DNA from: Candidatus Omnitrophota bacterium
GTDB lineage: Bacteria > Omnitrophota > Gorgyraeia > Duberdicusellales > 4484-171
Direction: 5' to 3'
Assembly: GCA_016935525.1 (NCBI GenBank)
Contig: JAFGQU010000004.1
Coordinates: forward strand, 131,774 to 195,773
Length of the DNA: 64,000 nucleotides
Shown: one piece after another, positions 9,371-50,189 of the stretch
Position numbering within the stretch: position 1 is the first letter of the stretch
Layout: every line of letters begins with the position of its first letter
Translations under genes and position numbers: made by a program
The notes under the pieces: model-generated
What the model was told of the DNA's origin: nothing
Database searches by the model: none
The model's input: only the letters and a program-made list of their open reading frames with translations

Positions 9371-9437
9371 ATCTTCTTTCTCTGGTTAAAACAAAATTTT
9401 ACCATTTAATCCGATATTCTCAAGGATTTTAATCGAT

Positions 9438-27113: not shown

Positions 27114-28054
27114 CGCGAACGCATTAATGCTTTTACGGTAAAATTCTGTTCGTCTATACCTTGATCATACCGGGTATTACTCATAAGGATCGTCGTGCGA
27201 TGGTTCGTACGCAGGTCCTTGCATTCCAGGGAAATCTGGGTAGGATATCGCTGACCATTCACGTCAATCAAATCCCACTCCCGGGAAACCGTTTTAAACT
27301 TCCTTCCGGTTTTATCGTAATATTCCTCAAAAATGATTCCGCCGTGGCTCTTATCAACCCATACTACACGTTTGTCATAATACCAATGGCTTTTCTTAGG
27401 ACGGCATTCGATTATAAAACAGGGAGCTCCCTGAGCTTTCATCTCTCCGGTCTCCTCTAAAGTATACCCTTTGAACGCATCCTCTCCTTTCAATTCATAT
27501 GTTTCATCCTCGAACCGCCGGGTAGAGACTTCCTCTACCGTCAAATCCGACCCCATGAACGCGTCGTCATCTTCCGAAGCGGATATTTTACGGGCTTTTT
27601 TCAGAGAAGGGATCCATAACCATACTTCCTGGTCCTTCTGGTAATCTTTATAGGTCCAGGTCAATACCGCAAGACCCTTCACCTCGGTAGGATAGGTAAT
27701 CGCAATAAGGTCTTTATAAGAAATATCTCCTTTATCCCCTTCGACGATACGTAACCGTTCCCAGATACGTTTACGCGTGAAGCCCGAAGGATCGACGTAA
27801 AATACGTTCCCCTCCTGCTGGAAATCCTTCGCAAACAAAGAATATTTGTTATGATAAGCGATTTCCATAATTTCTCCAGCACTCATACCCGAGGCAGGAA
27901 CATAGAGACGATGATACTCCAATGGTAATGCCTCGACAGCAAAAATGCAGAGAATGAACACGACTATGAGCGTCCCCCACTTCATAGCGACCTCCTTTCT
28001 TGTTTTCTCTACCGGATCTGACTTACCCTTTTGAGACTTTTTTCCCTCTATCAC
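27107..28054 (-). CDS. Periplasmic LolA-like lipoprotein-carrier-fold protein (DUF1329-like)
   Basis: Signal peptide and the composition and size of outer-membrane lipoprotein-sorting-like proteins. Translationally coupled with the flanking genes. Confidence 0.5.
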   Translation of the reverse strand: MIEGKKSQKGKSDPVEKTRKEVAMKWGTLIVVFILCIFAVEALPLEYHRLYVPASGMSAGEIMEIAYHNKYSLFAKDFQQEGNVFYVDPSGFTRKRIWERLRIVEGDKGDISYKDLIAITYPTEVKGLAVLTWTYKDYQKDQEVWLWIPSLKKARKISASEDDDAFMGSDLTVEEVSTRRFEDETYELKGEDAFKGYTLEETGEMKAQGAPCFIIECRPKKSHWYYDKRVVWVDKSHGGIIFEEYYDKTGRKFKTVSREWDLIDVNGQRYPTQISLECKDLRTNHRTTILMSNTRYDQGIDEQNFTVKALMRSRW

Positions 28055-31921: not shown

Positions 31922-31939
31922 AATTTTAGTTTTATAATG

Positions 31940-32022
31940 GTCACACGACACATAGTCACATAGACACACGTAAAAAAATATGGATCTTATACGTGTGACG
32001 TGTGACGTGTGACTTTGTGACC
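31940..32022. repeat. REP-like GTGAC-heptamer palindromic element
   Basis: ggtcacacgacacatagtcacatagacacacg - taaaaaaatatggatcttat - acgtgtgacgtgtgacgtgtgactttgtgacc. Lies between the aldolase stop and the ALDH start. Confidence 0.8.
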
Positions 32023-32023
32023 T

Positions 32024-33046
32024 TCATTCTACCGGCGCTTCTTCCCATAATTTGAAGGTGCGTACCATCACCGGGTACCACCGGCTCATCTTCGCAAAAT
32101 CACCTTTGGTCTTCACCTTCCCCTGAGTCGATGCGACAAAAGGATCGATCTCTTTATTGAACACTTTTTTAAGGACTTCCGGTTTACCGATGATCACAAA
32201 TTCCGCATCATCACAGTCGTCATCACGGACTATCCGGCCCTGTTCATAACAGAACCGCATGACTTCATCCGTATCCTGATTTTTTACCGCAAGCGTACAG
32301 GTCAATCCGTATTGTTTCCCTAAAGCTTGAGCTTGTTCGTCATTATTGACCAGTTCAGTAAGCCGCCCGCGGTGCGCCGCCGATAACATCTTATAGGTCT
32401 TCGACACACGCTGAGCATGTAATATCGGCTGTGTTTCCTGAACATGCAATCCGGCGGAAACCGCCTGGCTTTTAGTAATCAGATTTACTTTTGTCTGTTC
32501 TTCAATCAATTCCAAAAGGCTCACCGCTTCTTTGAATTCTTTCCCTATCGCCACGACCCCATGATACCGCAGTACCGTAATATTATTAGCCTCAAGCGCC
32601 GCCACGACCGGTTGTATATCGGTGACCGTAGGCGTATTCTGGGGTATGACCCGGACATTACCCAGATAGAATTTCGCTTCAAACGAAAATATATCCAGCG
32701 TATCGAAATAATGAAAAAACGCGGTCGTACACGGAGAATGGCTGTGGACTACGGTCTGGATATCGGGAAGCGACCGATACACCGCGAGGTGCAGATCTTT
32801 TTCACTGGACGGGGCCGATTCATTTCCCGCGATGAGATTGCCGTCGATATCGACACTCACGATATCGTCATAAGTCAAATGCCCCAAATAACAATCATGC
32901 CGGGTGATAAGGATGTGATTGGGGCCGATACGGCACGACAGGTTGCCGCTGCGGGCAGTGATCAACCCTTTTTGATAAAGGATATTCGCCCAATAAATGA
33001 TCTCTTTTTTTTCTCGTTCACACTTCACTGCCAGGCACCTCCTCAC
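32024..33046 (-). CDS. Class II aldolase/adducin-family protein fused to a C-terminal SCP2-like domain
   Basis: N-terminal half with GNLSCRIGPNHILIT...HSHSP, as in MtnB/FucA-type aldolases. C-terminus ...QGKVKTKGDFAKMSRW resembles the SCP2 sterol-carrier signature. Confidence 0.65.
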   Translation of the reverse strand: MRRCLAVKCEREKKEIIYWANILYQKGLITARSGNLSCRIGPNHILITRHDCYLGHLTYDDIVSVDIDGNLIAGNESAPSSEKDLHLAVYRSLPDIQTVVHSHSPCTTAFFHYFDTLDIFSFEAKFYLGNVRVIPQNTPTVTDIQPVVAALEANNITVLRYHGVVAIGKEFKEAVSLLELIEEQTKVNLITKSQAVSAGLHVQETQPILHAQRVSKTYKMLSAAHRGRLTELVNNDEQAQALGKQYGLTCTLAVKNQDTDEVMRFCYEQGRIVRDDDCDDAEFVIIGKPEVLKKVFNKEIDPFVASTQGKVKTKGDFAKMSRWYPVMVRTFKLWEEAPVE

Positions 33047-33500
33047 CGATTGTTTCGCGTTCAGAATGTATTATATACTTCTTTGACCGTTCATCTACAA
33101 CAAAATTATGTCCCGCCAGGGTCGAAGCATCCCGGTCAAAACCGGAAAGATCGTATTCCCCTTCAGCAAGGATACATACCGGCACCCGGTGGATTTCACT
33201 TAACAGCGCCGCGTATGAAGCCCCGGTCATCCCTTCCGGCCGCAAGGAACCTTTACGGCAGAAAAGAAACGTCTTTTTTATCTTTTTCGTATAGAAAAGA
33301 ATACCGATCATATTGTCGGTACAATATACCGCCGGGATGTAGTGTGAGGAAAGAAGCGGTAGATTATGGTGGATCCCGACACAATACGGCCGCTGTTCCG
33401 GGACGATCACCAGAGCGTCTTCATCCTTTAAGCAGGCAATATGTTCGTGTGAGATGATTCCCCATACCAACACCGCATTTTTAATCGTTTCAAGTTTCAT
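33018..33500 (-). CDS. Hypothetical protein
   Basis: 160-aa ORF in operon position, overlapping its neighbours. No recognised motif. Confidence 0.3.
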   Translation of the reverse strand: MKLETIKNAVLVWGIISHEHIACLKDEDALVIVPEQRPYCVGIHHNLPLLSSHYIPAVYCTDNMIGILFYTKKIKKTFLFCRKGSLRPEGMTGASYAALLSEIHRVPVCILAEGEYDLSGFDRDASTLAGHNFVVDERSKKYIIHSERETIGEEVPGSEV

Positions 33501-34402
33501 TGTTTCATCGGTAATTCTAAAGATTTTGTGATCAATCGGCCGGGCACCACATCAAATGCTGGATATACCGCGTCCTGGCCGTTACTCCACTTCTCAATAT
33601 AAGAAAACACCTCGCGCGGCGGCCGTTCTTCGATCTCGATACTGTTCACATCGATATCGCGGGGATATTGAGTAAGCGCGTAAAACGGGATATTGAAATG
33701 ACGGGCAAGGCACCCGAGGGCATACGTCCCGGTTTTATTGATAATATCTCCGGTCTTCGTCGCCCGGTCGGCACCGACCACGACACAATTCACTTTTTGT
33801 TTTTTCATAAGTAAAGCCGCCTGATTATCGCAGAGGAGATAACAAGACAGGTTGTTTTTCCGTAACTCCCAAAAGGTGATCCGGCTGCCCTGCAGGTAAG
33901 GCCGGGTTTCACATACGTAATAAGAAACGTGTTTACCCGAAGATTCCAATGCTTCAGCAAGATATAACAATTCTCCGTTGACGTTACATATCGTAAGGAT
34001 ATGCGCCTCTTGCGGCAGGAGTCCGGCAAGAGTAGTTGCCCTTAATTTACGGGCCCGGTCGAAATTCGTGATGAATCCGGAAACGATCTTATCCAGCGGC
34101 GCGCCGGATGCGCGGTAACGTTTTATTAATCCGTTTAAAAACAAAAAATCGAATGTAGGACGGGTCTTTTGGAATTTCCCGGCGATCTCATCGCTCGCAC
34201 ACGAATTTTCAAAAAGCACGCAACAATAGAAAAATAAAAGCACCTGGCCTAATGAACGGGTCTTCATCTGGCCTAACACACCCAAGGCGTCATCAAGAGT
34301 TTTTACCGTGATATACTCACACGTATAAGGGATCTTAGTCTCATCCAGGACTTGTATAGTATTTTCCGTTAAGCTGACCGGAAAAAGCAAAGGGCTATCC
34401 AT
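33497..34402 (-). CDS. eIF-2B-family sugar-phosphate isomerase (MtnA / ribose-1,5-bisphosphate isomerase-like)
   Basis: GADRATKTGDIINKTGTYALG and a C-terminal PAFDVVPGRLIT, characteristic of MtnA-type isomerases. Confidence 0.7.
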   Translation of the reverse strand: MDSPLLFPVSLTENTIQVLDETKIPYTCEYITVKTLDDALGVLGQMKTRSLGQVLLFFYCCVLFENSCASDEIAGKFQKTRPTFDFLFLNGLIKRYRASGAPLDKIVSGFITNFDRARKLRATTLAGLLPQEAHILTICNVNGELLYLAEALESSGKHVSYYVCETRPYLQGSRITFWELRKNNLSCYLLCDNQAALLMKKQKVNCVVVGADRATKTGDIINKTGTYALGCLARHFNIPFYALTQYPRDIDVNSIEIEERPPREVFSYIEKWSNGQDAVYPAFDVVPGRLITKSLELPMKQ

Positions 34403-36192: not shown

Positions 36193-37653
36193 TTATATAT
36201 GTTTTTCTCCCTTCACCGCGCCTTCTTCCCATTGGGAGACCCCGCGCATCACGTCCTGAAAACACAGTTTGGCTAATTGATCGAACTGGCTGTACATGAT
36301 CCGTTGGACCCGTCCAGGTTTTGAGAAAAATTCGCGCATACACCATGCACCCAATCTTCCCAGATCTTCTATGGAAAGATGATCGGTCGGCATCACCGGG
36401 TGCAAAAAATCCCATTTAAGAAAATCGATCTTTTTCGGATCGATGATCCCTTTCGCCATCCCCCGTTTCCATATCGGTGAGTTCGGCGCCGGAGTCACAT
36501 ATCCGATCCATAAGATATCGGGATCGACTTCGTCGGTAAACTCAAACCGCTGTTTCACGATCGCTTCGGTATCATAATCAAACCCCATCATGATATCGGC
36601 GACTACCGCGACATTGTTCCGGCGTAATATCTCGATGGTCTTTCTGATCTGTTCGATGGTAATCCCTTTGGCGATCTTCTTAAGTTCTTCCGGTGTGGTC
36701 ACCTCTATTCCAAATACTCCGATAAACAGACCGGTCTCTTTCATCAGCGGCAGGATCTCTTCACAGTTTACCCAATCGATCGCCCGGCCTAAAGAGACCC
36801 ATTTGATCGGATTGCCTTTTTCTTTTTTCAGGTCACAGAACTTTTTAACTCTTTCGGGATTCACGTTAAAATTATCGTCCTGGATGACCACGACTTTCGT
36901 GCCGAACTTATGATGAAGTAATTCGAGTTCTTCGATCACCCGTTCGGGAGATTTTGCCCGCCACTTCAAAAAATCTTCCGGGTGCCGCGGATCATACTGG
37001 TCCCATTCGTAACAGAACGTACAGGCCGAAGGGCACCCGCGGGAGGTCACCATTTCCACAAACGGTTTCCAGTGAGTATGGCCCACATACTTATCCATCG
37101 GGAAAAGGTCGTACGCCGGGAGCGGAAGGCTGTCCAGGCATACATTAAGCGGCCGGTGAGGGCCCATGACCGGTTTACCGTCGACGCGGGAAGAGACCCC
37201 GGCAAGGTCTTTGACCGGTTTTTTCTCGTCGATCGTCGTGATCAGATCATGGAACGCTTCTTCTTCAGCCATCACCACATAATCGATCGCCGGGTTCTGT
37301 TCCAGAGTAAATATCGGCATAGAAGAATACCATAATCCTCCGACAATGATCTTGGTATCAGGCAATGCCTGTTTTATCCGGGAAGCCGCTTCATTGAAAT
37401 ACCAGAGGATCGCGAACCCTCCGTAAGAATGGAGCATATCACCCAGCATTACCACATCCGGATTTTTCTCTTTTACCATGTGGACCATCTGGTCCATAGG
37501 TATTTCCAGGACGCGGCAATCGAGCACTTCCAGATCGTCATACCCTTTTTCCCGGACATAGGCACCCCACTGAGCATACAGCTGGTTAGGCGCGCGATGG
37601 ATACCATGAGTCGCCCATGCTCCCAACTTCGGCATCACAAACAATATTTTCAT
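36193..37653 (-). CDS. B12-binding-domain radical SAM enzyme (class B)
   Basis: N-terminal Rossmann-like B12-binding region, then SRGCPSACTFC (CX3CX2C). 486 aa. Confidence 0.75.
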   Translation of the reverse strand: MKILFVMPKLGAWATHGIHRAPNQLYAQWGAYVREKGYDDLEVLDCRVLEIPMDQMVHMVKEKNPDVVMLGDMLHSYGGFAILWYFNEAASRIKQALPDTKIIVGGLWYSSMPIFTLEQNPAIDYVVMAEEEAFHDLITTIDEKKPVKDLAGVSSRVDGKPVMGPHRPLNVCLDSLPLPAYDLFPMDKYVGHTHWKPFVEMVTSRGCPSACTFCYEWDQYDPRHPEDFLKWRAKSPERVIEELELLHHKFGTKVVVIQDDNFNVNPERVKKFCDLKKEKGNPIKWVSLGRAIDWVNCEEILPLMKETGLFIGVFGIEVTTPEELKKIAKGITIEQIRKTIEILRRNNVAVVADIMMGFDYDTEAIVKQRFEFTDEVDPDILWIGYVTPAPNSPIWKRGMAKGIIDPKKIDFLKWDFLHPVMPTDHLSIEDLGRLGAWCMREFFSKPGRVQRIMYSQFDQLAKLCFQDVMRGVSQWEEGAVKGEKHI

Positions 37654-38565: not shown

Positions 38566-39690
38566 TTACGAATGAGCCAAGGATTTAGGCAATAAAAATC
38601 CCATTACTAAAAGCGCTGCCCCGACAATAAGAAAATGGGTTTGAAACCCTAAGTGAGAGATAGAGATCCCTCCGGCGGCGGCACCGATCCCGCCGGCAAA
38701 AAAACGTAACGCGCTGTTAAGGCTTGAGGAATCTCTTAATATCTTATCGGGAAAATGGGTAAGATGCGATGATAACCCCACGTGCGTCAACGCCCAGCCG
38801 CCACCCCAAAAAAGCATTACCATAAAAAGCGCCGAATAGAGCCGCAAAAAGAACAGGATACCGCAAAAAAGAGCCATCACCATAAACCCTATCCGGGCAA
38901 GATGGATATTGCCGATACGGGCGGCAAGTATCCCGCCTAAGAATTCGGCGCCGGTCGCACTTACCGTAGATACAGTAAGGATAGAACTGATCAACACCTG
39001 GGTCAAACCGTACTGGATCTTGAAATACACGCCTAACCATTGCTGAACACTGTGATAAAAAAAACTGACCAGGATGATAACGATAAAAAAGTTAAGCGCC
39101 CCCCTATCGCGAAACGTATCTACATAACTGACTTTAAAACTCTCCCGGCGAAAATCGAATTCATCAAGGGCTATCGGTATAATCAAAAGCATCAGAAAAC
39201 TCATCCCGGCCGGAATAAGATAAAGCCCGCGCCACGGGATAAACCCGCTCAAGAATACGCTCACACAGGTCGACACATACGAAATCGCGAATAAAGTGCC
39301 GATATATTTGGATTTCTCGTTTTGGGGGACGCTTTTACCTATGGTAATCAGGATCAACGGCACAAAACTACAACCAAAACATCCCATAAGGAACCGGAAT
39401 ATATACGCCTGCGGCAAGGTGCTTGAGAAGGCAAATCCGAACGTGGAAAGGCTATATCCGGCCATGGTAAAAAGCAATATTTTTTTCACGGCCATGATCC
39501 GGGTAAGCGGAGACCAAAGGAGAGCGCACACGCCGTAAGGAAGCATATAAAGCCAGATAAGCCTTGCCGCCTGAACCGGAGGCACTGCGAAATAGAGAGC
39601 AAACTGGGGGACTAACGCCGCCATTGCCGCCACTCCGAAAGAAAGCGTAAAGAAACTGACACAGAAAAGCGAAAAACTATTTTTAGACAT
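38566..39690 (-). CDS. MFS transporter
   Basis: 12 predicted TM segments with MFS-like loop motifs. Confidence 0.75.
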   Translation of the reverse strand: MSKNSFSLFCVSFFTLSFGVAAMAALVPQFALYFAVPPVQAARLIWLYMLPYGVCALLWSPLTRIMAVKKILLFTMAGYSLSTFGFAFSSTLPQAYIFRFLMGCFGCSFVPLILITIGKSVPQNEKSKYIGTLFAISYVSTCVSVFLSGFIPWRGLYLIPAGMSFLMLLIIPIALDEFDFRRESFKVSYVDTFRDRGALNFFIVIILVSFFYHSVQQWLGVYFKIQYGLTQVLISSILTVSTVSATGAEFLGGILAARIGNIHLARIGFMVMALFCGILFFLRLYSALFMVMLFWGGGWALTHVGLSSHLTHFPDKILRDSSSLNSALRFFAGGIGAAAGGISISHLGFQTHFLIVGAALLVMGFLLPKSLAHS

Positions 39691-40120
39691 GCACTTCTTG
39701 TTCGATCAACTCTTTAAATCGTTTCAGATTTTCCTGAGAATGGTTGTTAATTATCTCTTCGACCTGCGCGTCGTTGAATTTCGCTTTTTTATCCATAGAA
39801 AAATCCTGGATCCATTTCATCTCGATCCCGCCGGAGGTTTCGCGGTAAAGCCAGATGATCTTCATATATTCGAAAGGGAACATCGGTTCAAGACGGCAGG
39901 CATAGGCATATTTATCTTCTTTACCCAACAGGCGATAAGAAATCCAGGAATTCCCGTTCTGATGCGTGAGCTGGAACGTGATCTTATTGCCTTCCTGACG
40001 GATCACTTCCGAGGCGGTATATTCGCTAAAAAACTCTTTCCAACGGGAGATGTCATTACTCATATCAAATACTTTTTCGTAAGGAGCGTTAATTACGATT
40101 GAATTTACGGTATGCGCCAT
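39683..40120 (-). CDS. SRPBCC (Bet v1/START-like) polyketide cyclase/aromatase-like protein
   Basis: 145 aa with an SRPBCC-like pattern (NAPYEKVFDMSNDISRWKEFF...). Start codon ATG at 40120. Confidence 0.5.
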   Translation of the reverse strand: MAHTVNSIVINAPYEKVFDMSNDISRWKEFFSEYTASEVIRQEGNKITFQLTHQNGNSWISYRLLGKEDKYAYACRLEPMFPFEYMKIIWLYRETSGGIEMKWIQDFSMDKKAKFNDAQVEEIINNHSQENLKRFKELIEQEVHV

Positions 40121-40137: not shown

Positions 40138-40237
40138 CGTAACGCGTAACGCGGCACGCGACACGCGCATAAAGAAAAATATTAAAATCGATTTCCTCTC
40201 CCCAAGACGCGTTACGCAGGACGCATGACGCGTTACG
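40138..40237. repeat. Variant palindromic element built from ACGCGTTAC/GTAACGCG heptamers
   Basis: cgtaacgcgtaacgcggcacgcgacacgcgc - ataaagaaaaatattaaaatcgatttcc - gacgcgttacgcaggacgcatgacgcgttacg. Same architecture as the GTGAC family, with a different unit. Confidence 0.75.
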
Positions 40238-41039
40238 GGAGCATCGCGACCACTCTCGCCCAGGCCGCGCCGGTTTGCCGGATACGTACCGGCAGACAAC
40301 TGACGGTAAACCCGTGATCAGGCAATGCCCCTAAATTAGCCAGCCGTTCGATATGGATAAACTCCCGAGTGCGCCCGTAAAAATGAGCCGGCCATAAATA
40401 GCGGGCTTCTCTTTTTTCTAAAAAGTCTTTCATCATGTATTTATAAGGACGGTCTATCCCCATGGTATCCACACCGAATATTTTTATCTGGTGATCAAGG
40501 AGATAATCGATCGCCGAATTGTCCAGCCCCGGATAATCGGAAAAATAACGGGGAGTGCCGTATAACGTATCCGAACCGGTATAGATAAGTACGATATCCA
40601 ACGGTTTTAAAGTATACCCTATCTTTTCAAGCGCTCGCCGGATATCTTCGGCGCCGATCGTCTCAAAAGGCTGCTTATAACAAAGGTCGAGGCGTACTCC
40701 GTTCTGCACGCACCATTCTAAGGGTATTTCTTCGGCGGTTTTCGACGGACGGCCTTCGGATCGGCTTCCGTAATGGAACGAATAATCAAGATGAGTCCCT
40801 ACGTGCACCGGGGAATGGACTATTTCCAAAGAAAGAAACTCTTCGTCGGGAAGATCGTCTTTAGTGATCATCCGCCGGCCGAACAGATAGGCGAGCTTCC
40901 CCTTGAGGGTCCTGGACATCAATACTTTATTTAGTTTTTTTATACCGTCACGGTGAGAAATCCGTTCGATATCGACATCATGGACTTCAAAAGCTTTTTC
41001 ATCAATGGGAAGGCTCAGGTCTATTATTCTCATGGTCAC
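40233..41039 (-). CDS. Putative-cyclase-family protein (kynurenine formamidase fold)
   Basis: HSPVHVGTHLDYSFHY metal-binding motif of the cyclase family. The probable true start is the ATG at 41033. The 3' end overlaps the ACGCGTTAC repeat. Confidence 0.65.
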   Translation of the reverse strand: MTMRIIDLSLPIDEKAFEVHDVDIERISHRDGIKKLNKVLMSRTLKGKLAYLFGRRMITKDDLPDEEFLSLEIVHSPVHVGTHLDYSFHYGSRSEGRPSKTAEEIPLEWCVQNGVRLDLCYKQPFETIGAEDIRRALEKIGYTLKPLDIVLIYTGSDTLYGTPRYFSDYPGLDNSAIDYLLDHQIKIFGVDTMGIDRPYKYMMKDFLEKREARYLWPAHFYGRTREFIHIERLANLGALPDHGFTVSCLPVRIRQTGAAWARVVAMLP

Positions 41040-41081: not shown

Positions 41082-41318
41082 TTACGACTGTTTTTTATTT
41101 TCAATAATCCCCACGATCTCCAGCGGAGTCGAGCTTTTTCCTATCTCGTCCGTTTCTATCTTTACCGCGAACTGTTTACCCAGCGCGACCGTCAATTCGA
41201 CCATTTCAGTTGAATCTACTCCGATAGAATCATAGAGCGTTTTATCTTCAATAAGTTCATCCTCACCCACATCCAATGTCTTGGCAATAGCCGAGATCAC
41301 TTCTTCTTTAAGTCCCAT
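41082..41318 (-). CDS. Acyl carrier protein
   Basis: IGVDSTEMVEL phosphopantetheine-attachment motif. Strong RBS AAAGGAGGG before the MGLKEE start. Confidence 0.75.
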   Translation of the reverse strand: MGLKEEVISAIAKTLDVGEDELIEDKTLYDSIGVDSTEMVELTVALGKQFAVKIETDEIGKSSTPLEIVGIIENKKQS

Positions 41319-41425
41319 GGTCCCTCCTTTTTGAAACACAGATAGTCACGGATTAAGATCCACAAGATGGTCACAGACGCAAAAATCTGCGATCATCAGT
41401 TCAAAATCAGCGATTATCTGCGCAA

Positions 41426-42661
41426 TCATGCCTTTTCAATAGCCAACACCACATTAATCCCGCCCCGGCCGCGCGCCAAAATAAGCGCTTTTTTTATTTT
41501 TCTCGACCGGGAAACGTTGGGAGTATAATCGAGATCACAGTAAGGGTCAGCCATCTCATAATTGATCGTAGGCAATATAGTCTCGTGCTCCATAGAAAGC
41601 AATGTCGAGATCAGATCAAGTGAAGTTTGAGCACCCAGGAGGTTTCCGTACATACTCTTGGGAGCGCTCAATGCGATACCACCGATCTTTTTACCGAACA
41701 CATTCTTTAGGGCCATTGTCTCATTACTGTCTCCGATTGTGGTCGCATCACCGTCGAGACAGATATAATCGATATCCTCCTTTTTCCATCCGGCATCATT
41801 GATACATTCTTCGATGGCATACTGGAAACTTTCCGGATCCAACCGGTACCGGGCATAATGGTACCCGTCACAACTTACTCCTATCCCGCGCAGGTATCCG
41901 TAGACCGGCGCGCTCCGATTACGGGCGTGGGCTTCTTTTTCGAACGTCACGATTCCGGCCCCTTCGCCCAACACAAACCCGTCACGGTTTAAATCATAGG
42001 GACGATACGCTTTTTGAGGATTAAGGTTATTTTTAGAAAGCTGACCGCAACTTGACGCCGAAAGGAGCGCATAAGGCGTAATCGGAGCTTCCATCCCGCC
42101 GGCAAGCACATAATCGTTTTTCCCCTCGGCGATCACTTTTGCTCCGTACCAAAGGGCAAGGGCCGATGAAGCTTTATCGGCGACGATGGTCTTACTATAC
42201 CCTTTAAACCCGTAATAAATAGTCACCTGCCCCTGAGGAGCCGCCGGAAACCAGGCACTGGCCATATAGGGCGAAATACCTTCACGGCCTTCCAAATACA
42301 TATCCCGCAGTTCAGTTTCGGCAAAAAGCCATCCTCCCAGAGCGTTTCCCATGAATACTCCGACTCTATTCTTATCCACCTGGGTATGATCTATCCGGGC
42401 ATCCTGTAACGCTTGTTCAGACGCTACCAGCGCCATATGAGAAAACACATCGATCTTTTTGATCAGCCGGCTCGATAAATGCGTGTAATAATCGAGTTCA
42501 TGTACCTGGCCGGCAATACGGGAAGGATAGAGTTTTGCGTCGAAGCGGGTGATCTCATCGACAAACGAACGGGCCTGTTTTAAATTCGCCCAAAACGTTT
42601 CTTTCTTCATCCCGCAGGGAGACACTACTCCTAATCCGGTAATAGCAACTGATTCTTTCAT
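41426..42661 (-). CDS. Ketosynthase-beta / chain-length-factor-like KS paralog, catalytically inactive
   Basis: Thiolase-fold KS in which the catalytic Cys position reads ADKASS (Lys). The two catalytic His positions read DGDATT and GNLLGAQ (Asp, Asn). Confidence 0.8.
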   Translation of the reverse strand: MKESVAITGLGVVSPCGMKKETFWANLKQARSFVDEITRFDAKLYPSRIAGQVHELDYYTHLSSRLIKKIDVFSHMALVASEQALQDARIDHTQVDKNRVGVFMGNALGGWLFAETELRDMYLEGREGISPYMASAWFPAAPQGQVTIYYGFKGYSKTIVADKASSALALWYGAKVIAEGKNDYVLAGGMEAPITPYALLSASSCGQLSKNNLNPQKAYRPYDLNRDGFVLGEGAGIVTFEKEAHARNRSAPVYGYLRGIGVSCDGYHYARYRLDPESFQYAIEECINDAGWKKEDIDYICLDGDATTIGDSNETMALKNVFGKKIGGIALSAPKSMYGNLLGAQTSLDLISTLLSMEHETILPTINYEMADPYCDLDYTPNVSRSRKIKKALILARGRGGINVVLAIEKA

Positions 42662-43932
42662 AAAGAAACTCCGTTTTCTTTGGTGTTAAAGCGTTTGAAA
42701 ATGATTGATGAGTGGATTCCTGAGAAACCACTACTTGTCTTTAAAATATAGTTCGGCATCAATTCCCGTTTGACATTGGGAATATAATCCAGGTCGCATT
42801 GCGGATCCGGTTCTTCCTGGTTGATCGTAGGAGGCAAATACCCGTTTTGAAAGATCATTCCGCACAGCACACTCTCCACCGCATTAGCCGCAGCTAAAGG
42901 ATGGCCGATCATCGATTTTATCGAACTGATCGGGACTTTATAGGCGTACTCTCCGAACACTCCTTTATACGCGTTGGTCTCAAACACATCGTTCTGGCGG
43001 GTTGAAGAACCGTGAGCGTTGATATAATCTATATCCTCGTTCTTTATTCCGGCATCGGCTATGGCTTCCCGGATACACCGTTCCATCGCTTCGCCGCTTT
43101 CGGGAAGATCAGTCATATGGTACGCATTACAGCTGGTACCGTATCCGACGACTTCTCCGTAAATAGGCACCCCTCTTTTTTTTGCGTGTTCTAACTCTTC
43201 TAAAATAAGGACGCCGGCGCCTTCGGAAATCACAAATCCGTTCCGTTTGTTATCAAACGGACGACTCGCTTTATGTGGTTCATCGTTATTTTTCGCAAGT
43301 ACGTTCACGACATCAAATGCTCCAAAAGTAATCGGGCAGACCGGGGCTTCACTTGCTCCGGCAATGACCAGGTCCTGCCGGCCGTCACGGATAAGTTCAT
43401 AGCTAAATCCTAACGAATCGGTCCCGGCGGTACATCCGGTAGAAACCGTACAATTGAACCCCTGAGTGCCGTACAGAGCGCTGATCTCACTGGAGGGGGT
43501 ATTGAACATCGCCGCATCGTAAAGATACGGCCTCCCTTTTCGGGGATCGATCGGATTTTTACCCCATCCGGTTACCCGTAAAAATTCTTCTTCCATAAAC
43601 CGGGTCCCACAGATGGCATTGGCAAGGATTACCCCGCATTTTTTCCGATCAAGTCCATTAAAATCTATTTTTCCGTCGGTCACCGCCTGGACCGCCGCAG
43701 CCAGGGCGAACTGGACGTACCTATCCATACGGAAATGGTCTTTAATCCCGAATTCTTCCGGATCAAAATCAAGATATTGCGAAGCGATCTTCGAGACAAA
43801 AAGACTTACGTCAAAATTTTCTACCAGTTCGACACAGGGTTTCCCGGAGATCAGATTATCGTAAAACGTATTTTTATCCGCACCGGCACCGCAGACAACG
43901 CCTAATCCCGTTATCACTACTCTTCTTTTCAT
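42658..43932 (-). CDS. Beta-ketoacyl synthase (KS-alpha)
   Basis: Catalytic Cys VSTGCTAGTDS, HGSST and GHPLAAA His motifs. Translationally coupled to the CLF gene. Confidence 0.85.
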   Translation of the reverse strand: MKRRVVITGLGVVCGAGADKNTFYDNLISGKPCVELVENFDVSLFVSKIASQYLDFDPEEFGIKDHFRMDRYVQFALAAAVQAVTDGKIDFNGLDRKKCGVILANAICGTRFMEEEFLRVTGWGKNPIDPRKGRPYLYDAAMFNTPSSEISALYGTQGFNCTVSTGCTAGTDSLGFSYELIRDGRQDLVIAGASEAPVCPITFGAFDVVNVLAKNNDEPHKASRPFDNKRNGFVISEGAGVLILEELEHAKKRGVPIYGEVVGYGTSCNAYHMTDLPESGEAMERCIREAIADAGIKNEDIDYINAHGSSTRQNDVFETNAYKGVFGEYAYKVPISSIKSMIGHPLAAANAVESVLCGMIFQNGYLPPTINQEEPDPQCDLDYIPNVKRELMPNYILKTSSGFSGIHSSIIFKRFNTKENGVSL

Positions 43933-44531
43933 TCTATTCTCCTTACCTTAAATTTCATATGCCCTCCGTCAGGACAGGCCGTACCGGTCTTACAGTGTTC
44001 GTTTTCTTCAAAAGTGAACTTCGCGCCGAAATTCAACGCAAACAGGACCGGAAACAGGACGCTGTAAGCCGCGCCACAAAACTCCGGAGGTGTTTTTAAC
44101 CCTTTTACCTGCCATTTGTCGCCCGGCTTGTAACCGAACGTACAATGTCCGCACGTCTCCTGCACCTCGATTTCCAGCTGTTTAGGATTGGGGCCTTTCG
44201 GTTTTTCAGCCCTGGGTTCGACAATTACATTACCGGCATCATCTAATATTTCGACTTTAAACGTAAGTTTGGCGTTATCGGGACAGGTCACATTGATCGA
44301 TCTGGTATTCTCCATGAACGGGAATTTCGCGCCGAAGGTAAGCGCGTAGAGACAGGGAAACGCCGATTGCGACAATCCCAGGCAGAAATCTTCGGGCGGA
44401 TGCGTAAAATCTTTCAAGATGAGCTCATCCCCTATCTTATAATTATGATAACAATACCCTCTTATCTCAAGAACAGTCAACTTCAGCTTGGGAAACGTTA
44501 CTTTTTGAGAGACTTCTTTTTTTTCATCCAT
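43929..44531 (-). CDS. Hypothetical protein made of two tandem roughly 95-aa Cys-rich domains
   Basis: Internal duplication. Both halves share C-x-H...K-x-GD...PE-x-FC...P-x-L-x-AL-x-FGAKF-x-F-x-EN...CPD...FKV. Confidence 0.5.
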   Translation of the reverse strand: MDEKKEVSQKVTFPKLKLTVLEIRGYCYHNYKIGDELILKDFTHPPEDFCLGLSQSAFPCLYALTFGAKFPFMENTRSINVTCPDNAKLTFKVEILDDAGNVIVEPRAEKPKGPNPKQLEIEVQETCGHCTFGYKPGDKWQVKGLKTPPEFCGAAYSVLFPVLFALNFGAKFTFEENEHCKTGTACPDGGHMKFKVRRIE

Positions 44532-45537: not shown

Positions 45538-45986
45538 TGCCCCGCCTCACAATATTTTCTGAATGCCCCAAGCACTCGCTCAATATTCATACAATGCAGA
45601 CGTTTATATACCATGTTCCAAAGCATACGGGAACATCTCCCTTTCAATTCGCAACAAAAACGGTAGACGACTTCTATCTGGGCCCGGTCCTGGTGGACAA
45701 AAAATTCTTCATACCCGCCTTTAAACATCCCGTCAAGAAACGTACGGCGTAGATATTTTTTCTCTCGGTCGACGACTTCATTACGTTTATGCCATGCGGG
45801 CCCTAACGGGAACCGCGCCTTTTGCCAATACAGCGTGCCTTCTTTGATGTCACCGGAAAGGTTAATAAACCTCATCATCATTTTTTCAGGCCACCACTCT
45901 GACTGTGGACCCAGAAGCAATTCTTCAAAGACATCGATCCCGTTTCTTTGCAGTGAAAAAACGATATTTTGTTTAATCGTCTCCAT
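45534..45986 (-). CDS. Hypothetical protein
   Basis: 150-aa ORF, translationally coupled within the cluster. No confident motif. Confidence 0.35.
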   Translation of the reverse strand: METIKQNIVFSLQRNGIDVFEELLLGPQSEWWPEKMMMRFINLSGDIKEGTLYWQKARFPLGPAWHKRNEVVDREKKYLRRTFLDGMFKGGYEEFFVHQDRAQIEVVYRFCCELKGRCSRMLWNMVYKRLHCMNIERVLGAFRKYCEAGQ

Positions 45987-46245
45987 CTTCTATATATTGT
46001 TTGTAGGGAACCTCCAGCTGCTGAAACAGACGGCGCATCATGTCACGAAATGCCGGGGGCACCTCACAGAAAAAGGCTTTAATAAGATCTTCTTCCTCTA
46101 CGGTGCGGGAATCCCGCGCGCCGGCGATCGCTTCGGCAGATTCTTTCACCAGGTGTTCGGCGATCGAACGGTGAAATTGAGGAAGATTCCCGATCACTTT
46201 ATCAAAGATATCCTGGGCATTTTTAGCCCATGCAACTGATGCCAT
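45973..46245 (-). CDS. Hypothetical small protein
   Basis: 90-aa ORF in operon position. Confidence 0.3.
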   Translation of the reverse strand: MASVAWAKNAQDIFDKVIGNLPQFHRSIAEHLVKESAEAIAGARDSRTVEEEDLIKAFFCEVPPAFRDMMRRLFQQLEVPYKQYIEDGDD

Positions 46246-46246
46246 G

Positions 46247-46984
46247 TCATACTCCTTTCTCGATCAGACTGAACGCCCCGTTAATCATCTTCATCTCGGC
46301 TTCAAAATAACGATAATCGGTAAACCCCATCTGTCCGGTAATAAGGTTATCGGAAACCGCAAGGACCACCGCGACTTTCTTTTTATAGATATTCGCCAAG
46401 GTCACGAAAGGGCTGGTAACCATATCAACGGCGATAGCGCCTTTATCGATATAAGAATTTACTATATCTTTCGTTTCGCGAAATATCGCATCGGTTGTCC
46501 ATACCCCGCCGCGATGGGTACCGCTGATCTCCTTAAATGTATCGACCAACGACGAAGTCAACTGTCCATCTACCAGAGGCATATATTCATCGTCCACGTA
46601 ATACCGGGTAACCCCGTCACCCCTGATCACTTTATCGGCAACAATAAAATCACCGATCTCGATATCATCGCGCAGGGCTCCGCAGGAACCGATACGGATA
46701 AGCGTCTCTACTCCGGCGGCACAGACCAATTCGGTAATAAACGCCGAATCGGGAGCGTAAAACCCTCCGTTGCCGACGGTGACCCGTTTCCCTTTATACG
46801 TACCGGTCCAGAAAGTGTAGCCCAGAAAAGTAAAATTTTTTACGGGATCTTCAAGTTTATCGACACACATTTTAGCCCGTTGCGGTTGTCCGCTGATGAT
46901 CGCAGTGTGAGCAAAATCGCCGGGACGAAACTGCAAAGAGTCTAACAGGCCTTTCGGTTCCATATGGATCTCTCTGGTCATCAT
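46247..46984 (-). CDS. PNP/UDP-family nucleoside phosphorylase or nucleosidase
   Basis: PNP_UDP_1 fold pattern (GNGGFYAPDSAF, IRIGSCGAL, a VDMVTSP-like region). Confidence 0.7.
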   Translation of the reverse strand: MMTREIHMEPKGLLDSLQFRPGDFAHTAIISGQPQRAKMCVDKLEDPVKNFTFLGYTFWTGTYKGKRVTVGNGGFYAPDSAFITELVCAAGVETLIRIGSCGALRDDIEIGDFIVADKVIRGDGVTRYYVDDEYMPLVDGQLTSSLVDTFKEISGTHRGGVWTTDAIFRETKDIVNSYIDKGAIAVDMVTSPFVTLANIYKKKVAVVLAVSDNLITGQMGFTDYRYFEAEMKMINGAFSLIEKGV

Positions 46985-47002: not shown

Positions 47003-47107
47003 AGTCACAAGGTCACATAGTCACAGGTCACACGCAATAGTTACTTTGAGGTATTTTCTTGACGTGTGTCGTGTGACGTGTGTCGTGTGACGTGTGTCGT
47101 GTGACGT
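47003..47107. repeat. REP-like GTGAC element with a 14-nt GTGTGACGTGTGTC x3 right arm
   Basis: tagtcacaaggtcacatagtcacaggtcacacgc - aatagttactttgaggtattttctt - gacgtgtgtcgtgtgacgtgtgtcgtgtgacgtgtgtcgtgtgacgttg. The right arm lies inside the ligase 3' coding end. Confidence 0.8.
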
Positions 47108-48603
47108 TGCAATGCTTGTTTATCGATCTTTCCCGTACGGTTTTTCGGTAACGACGCTACAAATTCAAAATGGTGAGGCACCTTAAAATGGGCAAGAAAT
47201 TTTCTCAAAAATTCGCGCAGGTCCTGAAGCGATAACTGCTCGTTTTCCTTAAGGACGATGAACGCTTTGGGGACTTCACCGCGTAACGCATCGGGCATAC
47301 CGATAACCGCGACTTCTTTTATTTTAGGATGCCGCTGGATCTTTTCTTCGACTTCAGCCGAAAAAACTATCTCGCCGGCCACTTTGATCATATCTTTCTT
47401 ACGTCCTACGATATAAAACAAGCCGTCTTTATCGCAATACGCGATATCTCCGGTCTTTAACCACCCGTCTTCGGTAAGTACTTCTTTGGTCAATTCCTCT
47501 TCCTGATAGTACCCACGCATCACTCCTTTACCTTTTACCCATAATTCTCCCTGTGCATTCACGGCACACCGGTTACCTTCGGCATCAACGATCTTTGCCT
47601 GTAAATAAGGCGAAAATCCGCCGATACTATGGATCTTATGTATATCGTTGGGAGAATAAGTGTTGGGTGCGGATGTCTCAGTCATCCCCCATCCGTTTAA
47701 AAGCGCGGATTCAGGGCACATTTTCTTGAATCGTTCAAGAAGTACCGGCGAAGAGGGAGCCCCGAATACCACGGCCCAACGCAACGAGGAAAGATCGAAC
47801 TTCTCCTGCCCTTTTAAAGAAAGGATAGCGACAAACATCGCCGGCACAATACAGAATATAGTCCCCCGGTAACGTTCAATAGTATGCAAGAATTCTAAAG
47901 GTTGAAATCTCTCCATCAATACCAGCGGTGAAGCAAAACAAAGCATGAGCAGGATATAATCTACACCGGCAATATGAGAGAACGGCACCCCGGCACAGAC
48001 AAAAATATCCTTATCGGTTATCTTAAGAAAATAATCCATGGTTTCCATGGGACTATCCAGATGAGCATAGTTAAGCATCACTCCTTTAGGATGGCCGGTA
48101 GAACCGGAAGTATAGAAAATAGCGGCAAGATGTCCGGGATCGATCGGGGAAGAAGGTTCCCGGGTATCTTTCTGTAACACTATCCGGTCCCAAGAAATCG
48201 CCTCAGCAGTCTCCTCTCCTAAGGTTATGATATGGCTTAATGTCGGACAGGCTTTTTTGATCTGATCGATATCGATCCCTTTTTTAGGCTGGAGGATCAG
48301 AGCCCGGGTGCGGCTATGGGTTACAAACTGAATGATCTCGTCCTGCGTCAACATGAAATCAAAAGGGATCACCGTCGCTCCCAGGCTGAATACACCGAGA
48401 AAACTCATCAGCGTTTCGGGGATATTCGGCAGGTAGAGAGCTATGTTATCATCCGGTGAGATACCGTGTTTGAGAAGATGATTCGCCAGGCCAAACGCGG
48501 TATCCCTGATCTGGGGAAACGTTATCTGCCGGTCTTTATACATGAGCATCGGCCTCGTTTGATAACGTTCACTTTGCTGAATAAGGAGTTTTTTTACATC
48601 CAT
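47041..48603 (-). CDS. AMP-dependent acyl-CoA/acyl-ACP ligase
   Basis: IFYTSGSTGHPKGVML AMP-binding motif and a C-terminal GKIDKQAL. The last roughly 20 codons (HVTRHTSHDTR...) are read from the repeat array. Confidence 0.8.
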   Translation of the reverse strand: MDVKKLLIQQSERYQTRPMLMYKDRQITFPQIRDTAFGLANHLLKHGISPDDNIALYLPNIPETLMSFLGVFSLGATVIPFDFMLTQDEIIQFVTHSRTRALILQPKKGIDIDQIKKACPTLSHIITLGEETAEAISWDRIVLQKDTREPSSPIDPGHLAAIFYTSGSTGHPKGVMLNYAHLDSPMETMDYFLKITDKDIFVCAGVPFSHIAGVDYILLMLCFASPLVLMERFQPLEFLHTIERYRGTIFCIVPAMFVAILSLKGQEKFDLSSLRWAVVFGAPSSPVLLERFKKMCPESALLNGWGMTETSAPNTYSPNDIHKIHSIGGFSPYLQAKIVDAEGNRCAVNAQGELWVKGKGVMRGYYQEEELTKEVLTEDGWLKTGDIAYCDKDGLFYIVGRKKDMIKVAGEIVFSAEVEEKIQRHPKIKEVAVIGMPDALRGEVPKAFIVLKENEQLSLQDLREFLRKFLAHFKVPHHFEFVASLPKNRTGKIDKQALQRHTTHVTRHTSHDTRQENTSK

Positions 48604-48699: not shown

Positions 48700-49242
48700 C
48701 TATGCTTTTTCCGGGGGGGGATCAAATTTTTGCTGCTTTACCGTATCAAACATCTCTTTAAGAAACGTCCTTTCGGTAGCCACTAAGCCTAAATGATGCC
48801 CAATAAGAAGCTGAATGTTCCGCGGTGAAGATTTTAATTCCTGCCGCTTGGTGAGAAGCCAATTTTCGGCTTCTCTTAAAAACCGCATCCGCAGCCGCAG
48901 AAGCGGGAGGACCTCCTCTTTATTGAGAAAAGAAAGAAAATAAAGCGGGATGTCTATTTCGATAAAAGGCCGCCGTTCAGAAAGTAGAGCTTCTTTTGCC
49001 AGACGGGAAAATTCTCTCTCACCGCGGGAAGTAATACAATAGGTATATTTACGCAGGCGGGCCTGCGGCACCTCTTTTCTTTCGACAAACCCTTCTTTTT
49101 CCATCTTCTGAAGCGGGTAATAGATCGACCTGGTCTCTAACTGAGAAAACAATCCCAACTCTTTGGTGATGAATTTTTTGATATCGTATCCGGTAGCGGG
49201 GTGTTTCTTCAAAATACCCAGAATAATAAATCGCTGTATCAT
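48700..49242 (-). CDS. PadR-family transcriptional regulator
   Basis: N-terminal winged-helix GILKKHPATGYDIKKFI...YYPLQKMEKEGFV. 180 aa. Confidence 0.8.
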   Translation of the reverse strand: MIQRFIILGILKKHPATGYDIKKFITKELGLFSQLETRSIYYPLQKMEKEGFVERKEVPQARLRKYTYCITSRGEREFSRLAKEALLSERRPFIEIDIPLYFLSFLNKEEVLPLLRLRMRFLREAENWLLTKRQELKSSPRNIQLLIGHHLGLVATERTFLKEMFDTVKQQKFDPPPEKA

Positions 49243-50189
49243 TCTTTAAACATTCCCAGACTTCTGAATTTTTGATAGCGGTTCGCGAGTAAAGAATCGA
49301 TATCGGTCTTTTTAAGTTCGGCAAGATGATGGATAAGCATATCTTTCAGGTTAAGCCCGGCCTGATGAGGGTCACGATGGGCGCCGCCTTCGGGTTCGGA
49401 AATGATCCCGTCAACTACCCCTAATTCGATAAGTTCGGGAGCGGTCAGTTTAAGAGTTTTGGCGGCATCGGGAGCGCGCCGGGAATCTTTCCAGAGGATC
49501 GCGGCACATCCTTCCGGAGATATTACCGAATAATAGGAATACTCCATAATAAATACTTTATCGCCGACCCCGATACCTAACGCTCCCCCGGAACCGCCTT
49601 CCCCGATCACTACCACTATAATCGGAGTACGTATCGTAAACATATCGCGGATGTTTTCGGCAATCGCTAAAGCCTGGCCCCGTTCCTCCGCCCCGATTCC
49701 CGGATAGGCACCCGGCGTATCCACCAAACAGACGATCGGTAAAGAAAACCTTTCGGCAAGACGCATCGCTCGCATTGCTTTACGGTATCCTTCAGGATGG
49801 GCGCAGCCAAAATTCCTTTCGATATTTTCTTTGGTATCTTTCCCTTTTTGATGCCCGATCAGGACGATCTTTTCCTGCTCGATCCGGGCAAGGCCGGTGA
49901 TCAAAGCTTTATCGTCTCCGAACAGCCGGTCGCCATGTAGCTGAATAAAATTATTCATCATCGAATTGACATAATCGAGCGTCGTAGGCCGCTGGGAATG
50001 GCGGGAAATCTGCACTTTCTGCCAGGGCGTCAGTTGAGAATATATCTCCCGTTTCAGACTTTTCAATTTCTCCTGGAGTTTCTCAAGCTCTGAGGAAAGA
50101 TTTACTTCTTTATCGCGTGAGAATTCATTCAATTCTCTGATTTTATTTTCTAATTCTTCAATAGGTTTTTCAAAATCCCAGTATTGCAT
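49239..50189 (-). CDS. accA: Acetyl-CoA carboxylase carboxyltransferase alpha subunit
   Basis: MQYWDFEKPIEELENKI...GAYPGIGAEERGQ, canonical AccA blocks. Confidence 0.9.
   Translation of the reverse strand: MQYWDFEKPIEELENKIRELNEFSRDKEVNLSSELEKLQEKLKSLKREIYSQLTPWQKVQISRHSQRPTTLDYVNSMMNNFIQLHGDRLFGDDKALITGLARIEQEKIVLIGHQKGKDTKENIERNFGCAHPEGYRKAMRAMRLAERFSLPIVCLVDTPGAYPGIGAEERGQALAIAENIRDMFTIRTPIIVVVIGEGGSGGALGIGVGDKVFIMEYSYYSVISPEGCAAILWKDSRRAPDAAKTLKLTAPELIELGVVDGIISEPEGGAHRDPHQAGLNLKDMLIHHLAELKKTDIDSLLANRYQKFRSLGMFKE

Follow-up and report, generated by a model that had tools for sequence, protein, structure and literature searches.

The open reading frame (ORF) at 41426-42661, on the minus strand of the 64,000-nucleotide stretch of Omnitrophota DNA analysed here (the window), very probably encodes the catalytically inert ketosynthase (KS)-β subunit, or chain length factor (CLF), of an aromatic-type type II polyketide synthase (PKS), which is the best explanation of the evidence as a whole. 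The protein is an ordinary addition to a known enzyme class, and the lysine that it carries at the position of the catalytic cysteine is the local version of a widespread, little-remarked basic residue.

A ketosynthase fold without the catalytic triad

The ORF lies in a window with a G+C content of about 46%, and its product is identical to an annotated protein of a Candidatus Omnitrophica metagenome-assembled genome (MAG) (P0001). The Pfam families PF00109 (E 2.6e-45) and PF02801 (E 4.7e-26) together span it from end to end, and the nearest NCBIfam model is FabF, at 367 bits against an equivalog cut-off of 494. In phmmer, Bacillus subtilis FabF (4LS5) aligned with it over its full length, essentially without gaps (E 4e-81). 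This alignment places ADKASS opposite TACATG, so that the catalytic Cys becomes Lys163; LDGDATT opposite AHGTSTY, the first His becoming Asp303; and YGNLLGA opposite TGHLLGA, the second His becoming Asn340. The Lys of the KSM motif (Lys335) is kept, and Arg399 (GRGG) stands where the GFGG motif has its gating Phe, an extra substitution that was absent from the initial annotation of this DNA.

For the structural comparison, an early AlphaFold2 (AF2) model based on a 27-sequence alignment (at least 70% identity) was discarded, having a pLDDT of 65 and a Foldseek rmsd of about 12 Å. The model used was built on an alignment of 53 more diverse homologues; the monomer reached a pLDDT of 91.9 and a pTM of 0.93, and superposed on FabF 4LS5 with a TM score of 0.96 and an rmsd of 1.5 Å over 411 columns. 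Because the superposition is so close, the sequence register can be taken as the structural register of the active site. In the model Lys163 stands at the N-terminus of helix 162-178, right after strand 156-160, i.e., at the canonical spot for the nucleophile. The initial annotation had proposed the exchanges of Cys for Lys, His for Asp and His for Asn, and phmmer, the AF2 superposition and translation of the codons all bore this out; neither the phmmer alignment nor the structural superposition on FabF 4LS5 placed a Cys or either His at the catalytic positions. It had also stated that the adjoining KS retains Cys, His and His, which is correct, the motifs there being STGCTAG, AHGSS and GHPLAA, followed by GFSG with the gating Phe.

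The assignment of the protein to the CLFs did not come from structure. FabF structures head the Foldseek list for the model, and among the best 50 structural matches the only actinorhodin KS/CLF chain is 1TQY_A, at rank 43. Both points weigh against our assignment, in that a structure search cannot separate a CLF from FabF, and membership was therefore decided by phylogeny and context. As a reference we took the CLF of a Streptomyces plasmid locus (L048), annotated as 'ketosynthase chain-length factor', which matches the actinorhodin (act) CLF, 1TQY_B, at E 1e-155. Thirty-nine sequences, comprising the window KS and CLF, the Streptomyces, Bacillus plasmid and Clostridium beijerinckii pairs and representatives of clusters at 50% identity, were aligned, and a neighbour-joining (NJ) tree was built on Kimura distances with 200 bootstrap replicates. 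Twenty subunits without the Cys, including the Streptomyces CLF and the window CLF, split from all Cys-containing KS and FabF sequences in 200/200 replicates, while the window KS, 35% identical to the window CLF, joined the KS-α subunits of the Streptomyces, Bacillus and Clostridium type II PKSs in 157/200. The window CLF also carries the CLF-type motifs GGW/FxF and AWFPAAPQGQ. Since the act CLF too has Asp at position 303 (FADGAG), the exchange of His for Asp is a trait of CLFs and does not single out the window gene.

The genomic context agrees. The stop codon of the KS gene and the start codon of the CLF gene share the sequence ATGA, with a GGAG ribosome-binding site upstream, and the window holds no KS or acyl carrier protein (ACP) genes beyond this KS, the CLF and one ACP. 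After the ACP come two cyclase genes. The SRPBCC protein matched the TcmN aromatase/cyclase (ARO/CYC) (2REZ) at E 8e-33 and 3TL1 at E 7e-28 in phmmer, and the PF04199 protein shares 45% identity with the cyclase encoded at the C. beijerinckii type II PKS locus. An SDR and an Amidohydro_2 protein of the cluster are likewise in keeping with an aromatic PKS. A set of KS, CLF, ACP, TcmN-type and OxyN-type genes is that of the 'ancestral' non-actinomycete aromatic type II PKSs (PMC7693217), a non-actinobacterial group that includes the den, ant, pcy and wex clusters; the window cluster has this architecture, with its two cyclases in swapped order. The coupling to an active KS, the ACP, the cyclases, the tree, the motifs and the shared Asp303 thus support the CLF assignment well. 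The initial annotation, which had described a CLF-type pseudo-KS beside an active KS, was right on this point: an intact fold, a lost triad, a coupled KS-α with its ACP and the grouping in the tree are all present, and the hallmark Gln is missing.

The residue at the cysteine position and its co-varying charges

In actinobacterial CLFs the Cys position holds Gln, as in the act CLF (AEQAGG) and Streptomyces Mut1 (SDQAGG). We surveyed this position in two sets of relatives of the window CLF. The close family consisted of 121 homologues of at least 70% identity, essentially all from Omnitrophota MAGs. Here 80 sequences have Lys at position 163 and the other 41 have Arg; Asp162 and Lys335 are invariant (121/121 each), and Asp303, Asn340 and Arg399 are each found in 120/121. 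With these positions invariant or nearly so, the substitutions in the window CLF are not due to chance or to an alignment artefact. Parsimony on an NJ tree of the close family required at least 20 switches between Lys and Arg at 163, and in 45 fetched genome loci 7 of the 12 Arg163 codons are CGN, two steps from AAR. At the level of sequence, the positive charge at 163 is under selection.

Farther afield, an exhaustive search of representative sequences was dominated by multi-KS megasynthases, whose scores are summed, and we used the 33 single-domain matches of about 400 amino acids. Among them, an Asp followed by a basic residue was found in the CLFs of C. beijerinckii and C. puniceum (ADRASG), Ktedonobacter racemifer (SDRASG), Archangium and a Deltaproteobacteria MAG; the CLF of a Bacillus bombysepticus plasmid also carries this motif. 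With 12 CLFs from outside the Omnitrophota as seed, a profile search then yielded 111 new homologues, 35-59% identical to the window CLF, of which 98 have Arg at 163, 12 Ser, one Cys and none Lys. For 245 distinct Cys-less sequences, the residue at 163 is basic in about 95%, and is Arg, Lys or Ser in 243. It follows from this survey that Lys163 is a conservative, lineage-specific variant of the Arg that is the norm in non-actinobacterial CLFs. As far as these sequences go, Lys at 163 is confined to the Omnitrophota subfamily and Arg is the rule elsewhere, and the Gln hallmark appears to define an actinobacterial subgroup rather than the whole CLF family. The initial annotation had called Lys unusual at this position and Gln normal; this holds when the window CLF is set against actinobacterial CLFs, which do have Gln, but fails elsewhere, both among the distant homologues, where Arg prevails, and in the close family, which is divided between Lys and Arg.

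A search of the literature, in which subscription journals were mostly outside coverage, turned up no account of Arg or Lys in place of the Cys in CLFs from outside the actinobacteria. Other cases without Gln have been described: Asp is reported for AntE (PMC6638757), and Val or Thr for the anammox subunit amxFabFmut (bioRxiv 10.64898/2026.05.19.726425).

The residues around position 163 vary together. In 223 of the 245 Cys-less sequences a basic residue at 163 is accompanied by Asp or Glu at 303, and in the clade of 12 with Ser at 163 both charges are lost together, position 303 being Asn. Where position 163 is Gln or Ala (two sequences), Asp303 is still present and position 340 is Arg; the act CLF, aligned separately, has the same arrangement of Gln at the 163 position, Asp303 and Arg at 340. 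An acidic residue at 303 without a basic one at either 163 or 340 did not occur in the 245 sequences. In KS structures, the side chains of the Cys and the first His are in contact. Because these two positions touch in the KS fold and their charges co-vary, the simplest reading is a buried ion pair between 163 and 303. We infer that a Lys163-Asp303 ion pair plugs the vestigial active site, and actinobacterial CLFs appear to supply the positive charge from position 340 instead (Gln163 plus Arg340).

Several observations count against this reading. Seven of the 245 sequences have a basic residue at 163 without an acidic one at 303, so the pair is not obligatory. The counts for positions 163, 303 and 340 ignore kinship, and the actinobacterial type is represented by three sequences only; the Ser163/Asn303 group probably reflects a single evolutionary event. 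The strict conservation of Asp162, Lys/Arg163, Asp303, Asn340, Lys335 and Arg399 would, moreover, fit retained binding or catalysis as well.

The last point leads to an alternative in which Asp162, Lys/Arg163, Asp303, Asn340 and Arg399 form a working site, which might hold the carboxylate of malonyl-ACP or of the starter and promote decarboxylative priming, in the manner of a Gln 'chain initiation factor' with a basic residue instead, or might steer the first cyclisation. The maintenance of the positive charge at 163 through the many exchanges of Lys and Arg, with five neighbouring residues near-invariant, speaks for it, and there are precedents of several kinds. The Gln of the act CLF (Q161) has been linked to decarboxylase activity and chain initiation (Bisang et al., 1999, as cited in PMC3691225), the proposed 'cyclization factor' AmcG is a partner subunit with a role beyond chain-length control (PMC10698177), and the anammox heterodimer decarboxylates malonyl-ACP only as a pair (bioRxiv 10.64898/2026.05.19.726425). 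Nevertheless, we consider a working site improbable. Both His, which are the decarboxylation residues of KS and KSQ domains, are lost together with the gating Phe; a structural ion pair would be expected to produce just the co-variation seen with 303 and 340; and a dedicated acyl-AMP ligase in the cluster makes priming by the CLF unnecessary. The resemblance to the cispentacin system is also slight: of the cispentacin models of NCBIfam the window CLF and KS match only AmcF, at 133 and 156 bits, far under the cut-off of 325, and the CLF has a full-length KS fold, which sets it apart from the AmcG type, a shortened partner of an AmcF-type KS without the KS motifs. Nor does it have the Gln and both His of a KSQ domain or 'chain initiation factor', the corresponding residues being Lys163, Asp303 and Asn340.

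With both His and the gating Phe gone, the CLF site cannot condense and is unlikely to decarboxylate, and the protein is predicted from its sequence to be catalytically inert. The CLF gene is translationally coupled to that of the upstream, active KS-α, and by analogy with KS-CLF pairs of known structure the two proteins would form an obligate heterodimer in which only KS-α condenses malonyl-ACP. The CLF would then serve as one wall of the product tunnel and as a stabiliser of KS-α. The Cys-His dyad would give way to the Lys163-Asp303 ion pair, and Asn340 and Arg399 would help it to fill the remnant of the active site and seal it. Decarboxylative priming by the CLF would be unlikely, the starter more probably coming from the acyl-AMP ligase of the cluster, and the nascent chain would be folded by the adjoining TcmN-type and PF04199 cyclases. 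In the AF2 model, segment 111-140 of the CLF is of low confidence and overlaps the region aligned to the gatekeeper residues of the act CLF, an overlap that is only suggestive of a tunnel role.

These results bear on how CLFs are recognised. The Gln hallmark describes actinobacterial enzymes only, and in a much broader non-actinobacterial clade Arg (Lys in the Omnitrophota subfamily) goes together with an acidic residue where the first His would be. The pattern matters for annotation rules because NCBI names such CLFs as generic beta-ketoacyl-ACP synthases. It also touches the old question of whether the Gln of the CLF is needed for chain initiation, in that natural type II PKSs, including that of clostrubin-producing Clostridium species, have Arg in its place. 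The charge pattern of Lys/Arg163 and Asp303, with Arg340 as a variant, makes the role of this 'active-site' residue of the CLF testable by mutation.

As a separate observation, the source-named members of the Ser163/Asn303 clade are labelled as Nitrospirota MAGs. One example (L053; contig JBFOMO010000850.1 of GCA_040960315.1, 3151-12785) has a core of KS, CLF, ACP, cyclase and SRPBCC genes, adjoined by genes for a Peptidase_U32 protein, DUF2621-like small proteins, an aldehyde:ferredoxin oxidoreductase (AFOR) and an FMN reductase. Peptidase_U32 is the family of the O2-independent ring hydroxylases UbiU and UbiV. A 90-amino-acid ORF in the window (45973-46245) also weakly matches DUF2621.

The gene cluster around the KS-CLF pair

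The KS and CLF genes lie within a conserved cluster, whose features are listed in Table 1. In the direction of transcription it starts with an acyl-AMP ligase, a PNP_UDP_1 phosphorylase, two small ORFs, an ApbA-like reductase and the TIGR04076-family protein, continues with KS, CLF, ACP, the two cyclases, an MFS transporter, an SDR, a B12 radical SAM enzyme and an Amidohydro_2 protein, and ends with a class IV aminotransferase, an IF-2B/MtnA-like isomerase, a class II aldolase-SCP2 fusion, an aldehyde dehydrogenase (ALDH), and RND/MMPL, LolA-like/DUF1329 and DUF1302 proteins.

Table 1. Features of the window discussed in the text, in order of position.
Feature	Position	Strand	Basis or remark
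Whole conserved cluster, ~22 genes, ~23 kb	25632-48603	minus	Pfam/NCBIfam matches, synteny
Export module: RND/HAE3-MMPL transporter, LolA-like/DUF1329, DUF1302	25632-30428	minus	weak HpnN match (transporter)
ALDH	30482-31969	minus
Class II aldolase fused to SCP2	32024-33046	minus
Small IF-2B fragment ORF	33018-33500	minus
MtnA-like ribose-1-P isomerase	33497-34402	minus
BchE/HpnJ-like B12 radical SAM enzyme	36193-37653	minus
TcmN-type SRPBCC aromatase/cyclase	39683-40120	minus	PF10604, PF03364
PF04199 'putative cyclase' (OxyN/DpsY-type polyketide cyclase family)	40233-41039	minus	PF04199 E 1e-27
ACP	41082-41339	minus	PF00550 E 2.5e-08; DS motif in GVDSTEM
KS-β/CLF (very probable)	41426-42661	minus	411 aa; Pfam, FabF alignment, AF2, tree
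Arg399 codon, replacing gating Phe	41465-41467	minus	translation RGRGG, vs GFGG/GFSG in FabF/KS-α
Asn340 codon, second catalytic His position	41642-41644	minus	translation KSMYGNLL
Asp303 codon, first catalytic His position	41753-41755	minus	translation CLDGDA
Lys163 codon	42173-42175	minus	checked by translation
Asp162-Lys163 codons, Lys163 at catalytic Cys position	42173-42178	minus	translation VADKAS
KS-α, active-type partner	42658-43932	minus	Cys/His/His and gating Phe kept
Tandem-duplicated Cys-rich TIGR04076-family protein	43929-44531	minus	NCBIfam TIGR04076 E 2.9e-28, two matched stretches
PNP_UDP_1 phosphorylase	46247-46984	minus	weak HpnG, MTAP and futalosine-hydrolase matches
Acyl-AMP ligase	47041-48603	minus
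PadR-family regulator and accA	48700-50189		immediately upstream of acyl-AMP ligase

Synteny was followed by tblastn of the window cluster proteins against the 45 species-representative genomes found with the CLF (L001-L045). Gene order is kept over about 18 genes in at least 45 species-representative genomes, mostly titled Candidatus Omnitrophota, with identities of 68-90% for the CLF, 70-90% for the KS and 75-83% for the B12 radical SAM enzyme; accA, which only two of the loci reach, is 62-81% identical there. In a divergent Omnitrophica genome (L052; CLF about 58% identical) the gene set is kept, and it is kept too in a Deltaproteobacteria-type MAG (L050; CLF 56%), with aldehyde:ferredoxin oxidoreductases replacing the ALDH. 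For a polyketide cluster this is unusually strong conservation, and it suggests that the function is a core one; being unusual for a 'secondary' metabolite cluster, it deserves a study of its own. Some of the syntenic genomes (L001, L012-L016, L020, L025 and others) are titled 'uncultured Planctomycetia bacterium', and one 'Methanosarcinales archaeon'. Their cluster proteins are 75-90% identical to the Omnitrophota ones, and the titles are probably taxonomic mis-assignments or binning errors.

The same data dispose of the idea that the CLF gene is a decaying, functionless KS duplicate. The loss of every catalytic residue is what such a duplicate might display, but the reading frame is intact over its full length, the predicted fold is of high confidence, the substituted positions are themselves invariant, and the CLF keeps 68-90% identity across the 45 genomes and, in the two loci that reach accA, is conserved no less than this housekeeping gene. 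The chance that it is a pseudogene is negligible, and we rejected this explanation as effectively refuted by the conservation data.

Further observations concern the genes next to the KS-CLF pair. In the Omnitrophica MAG GCA_001804395.1 (L052), two small ORFs of 67 and 152 amino acids, the latter with a faint match to DUF6036, lie between KS and CLF (9381-9984), and a 479-amino-acid ORF without a Pfam match (11281-12720) stands between CLF and ACP; because of the ORFs inserted between them, translational coupling of KS and CLF is not universal in the family. Directly upstream of the window KS is the TIGR04076-family protein. Single-copy homologues of it flank the KS-CLF pair in the C. beijerinckii locus (L046; 9260-9787 and 13656-13946), and 'ancestral' type II PKSs may have in this family an accessory component that has gone unrecognised.

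Within the PKS cluster, the PNP_UDP_1 phosphorylase, the MtnA-like isomerase with the small IF-2B fragment ORF, the class II aldolase-SCP2 fusion, the ALDH, the acyl-AMP ligase and the B12 radical SAM enzyme make up a gene set reminiscent of nucleoside salvage. They might provide a starter in the form of a fragment derived from 5'-deoxyadenosine or 5'-methylthioadenosine (MTA); alternatively, an adduct of the adenosyl radical might undergo processing like that of the hopanoid and futalosine pathways. As a source of the starter, the acyl-AMP ligase of the cluster is plausible. The export module forms the downstream end of the cluster, its transporter and LolA-like/DUF1329 protein also adjoining the cluster in the Deltaproteobacteria-type MAG, and suggests that a hydrophobic product is sent to the outer membrane. 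At the other end, the adjacency of the PadR-family regulator and accA to the acyl-AMP ligase is kept in L001 and L042; accA encodes the carboxyltransferase α subunit of acetyl-CoA carboxylase, i.e., the supply of malonyl-CoA.

From these genes a larger proposal can be framed, in which the conserved basic residue, with Asp162, Asp303, Asn340, Lys335 and Arg399, is a functional KS-β site in a pathway that joins an aromatic PKS to chemistry resembling 5'-deoxyadenosine/MTA salvage, and in which the product is an exported, hydrophobic aromatic polyketide with a core physiological role. The pathway would be one conserved in Omnitrophota and a Desulfobacterota-type MAG, with phosphorylase, ribose-1-P isomerase, class II aldolase, ALDH, acyl-AMP ligase and B12 radical SAM enzyme. 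Taken together, these suppositions make an unlikely whole.

Some of the same genes would suit a fatty-acid-type heterodimer like the anammox pair amxFabF2/amxFabFmut, building an unusual aliphatic lipid instead of an aromatic polyketide, from what antiSMASH would class as a 'ladderane-like' cluster. The B12 radical SAM enzyme has a weak match to TIGR04072 ('lipid biosynthesis B12-binding/radical SAM'), and there are the TIGR04076 protein, the MMPL/RND, LolA-like and DUF1302 export set and the SCP2 domain. Ladderane-type biosynthetic gene cluster calls have been made in Omnitrophota MAGs (PMC9902471). The window CLF scores alike against 9S5H_B (E 1.9e-65) and the act CLF (2.7e-64), and the KS, at 424.6 bits, exceeds the 387-bit cut-off of the FabF subfamily model of NCBIfam. 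Against this, the TcmN-type ARO/CYC and the PF04199 cyclase follow straight after the ACP, as in the ancestral aromatic PKSs (PMC7693217), the cluster showed no genes of the FabZ or FabI type, and the CLF grouped with the Streptomyces CLF in every bootstrap replicate of a tree that the 9S5H chains stand outside. The window CLF also departs from amxFabFmut in its Lys at the Cys site (Val or Thr in the anammox subunit), in a gene downstream rather than upstream of the KS and in the presence of cyclases. Chiefly on account of the TcmN-type cyclase, a ladderane-type fatty acid synthase pair was judged very unlikely.

Candidatus Omnitrophica is among the 14 phyla with KS-CLF pairs in a 2023 catalogue (PMC10132072), and our literature search found no studies of the Omnitrophota KS-CLF cluster of the window.

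Comparison with known systems

The actinorhodin KS-CLF (ActI-ORF1/ORF2, 1TQY) resembles the window pair in its KS fold, in the order of KS, CLF (with overlapping stop and start codons) and ACP, and in the lost triad of the CLF. An acidic residue precedes the Cys position in actinorhodin and other actinobacterial CLFs as it does here (Glu-Gln in act, Asp-Gln in Mut1, Asp-Lys in the window), Asp replaces the first His in both (FADGAG in act, LDGDAT in the window), and the Streptomyces CLF falls in one clade with the window CLF in all 200 replicates. The act CLF differs in having Gln161 where the window CLF has Lys163, and Arg rather than Asn at the second His. Actinobacterial CLFs are only about 35% identical to the window CLF, and the host of the window is an uncultured member of the Omnitrophota, with many non-canonical genes in its cluster.

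Another relative is the CLF of C. beijerinckii and C. puniceum (P0131), which is 40% identical and has the ADRASG motif and an acidic residue (Glu) at 303. Both species are producers of clostrubin (bioRxiv 10.1101/2020.08.10.245514), and, judging by the two hosts, this protein is most probably ClrB, the CLF of clostrubin biosynthesis. The C. beijerinckii locus shares with the window cluster genes for a TIGR04076-like protein, KS, CLF, the PF04199 cyclase, the TcmN-type SRPBCC protein and an Amidohydro_2 protein, at 29-45% identity, but only those six; it is without the phosphorylase, isomerase, aldolase and ALDH set, the B12 radical SAM enzyme and the RND export genes. Its CLF has Arg rather than Lys and keeps the second His.

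The K. racemifer CLF, whose KS-CLF has been expressed in Escherichia coli in a study that does not discuss active-site residues (bioRxiv 10.1101/2020.05.18.102780), has SDRASG at the Cys position and falls in one clade with the window CLF, but keeps both His and the Phe of GFGG. AntE, the CLF of the Photorhabdus anthraquinone PKS (6SMO/6SMP), is likewise non-actinobacterial and without Gln, the reported residue being Asp; it is also much more divergent, with a C-terminal third unlike other CLFs (PMC6638757). It was not among the sequence matches of the window CLF ORF.

The anammox pair amxFabF2/amxFabFmut (9S5H) shares the combination of a FabF-like active subunit with a triad-less, KS/CLF-like one, and B. 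subtilis FabF 4LS5 is the closest structural neighbour of both amxFabFmut and the window CLF. The anammox subunit differs in the Val or Thr at its Cys site, in a gene position upstream of the KS and in belonging to a lipid pathway without aromatic cyclases. Finally, in KSQ loading domains and in C163Q mutants of FabF, as in the window CLF, the nucleophile is replaced within an intact KS fold. Those proteins keep both His and act as malonyl decarboxylases, whereas in the window CLF both His are lost.

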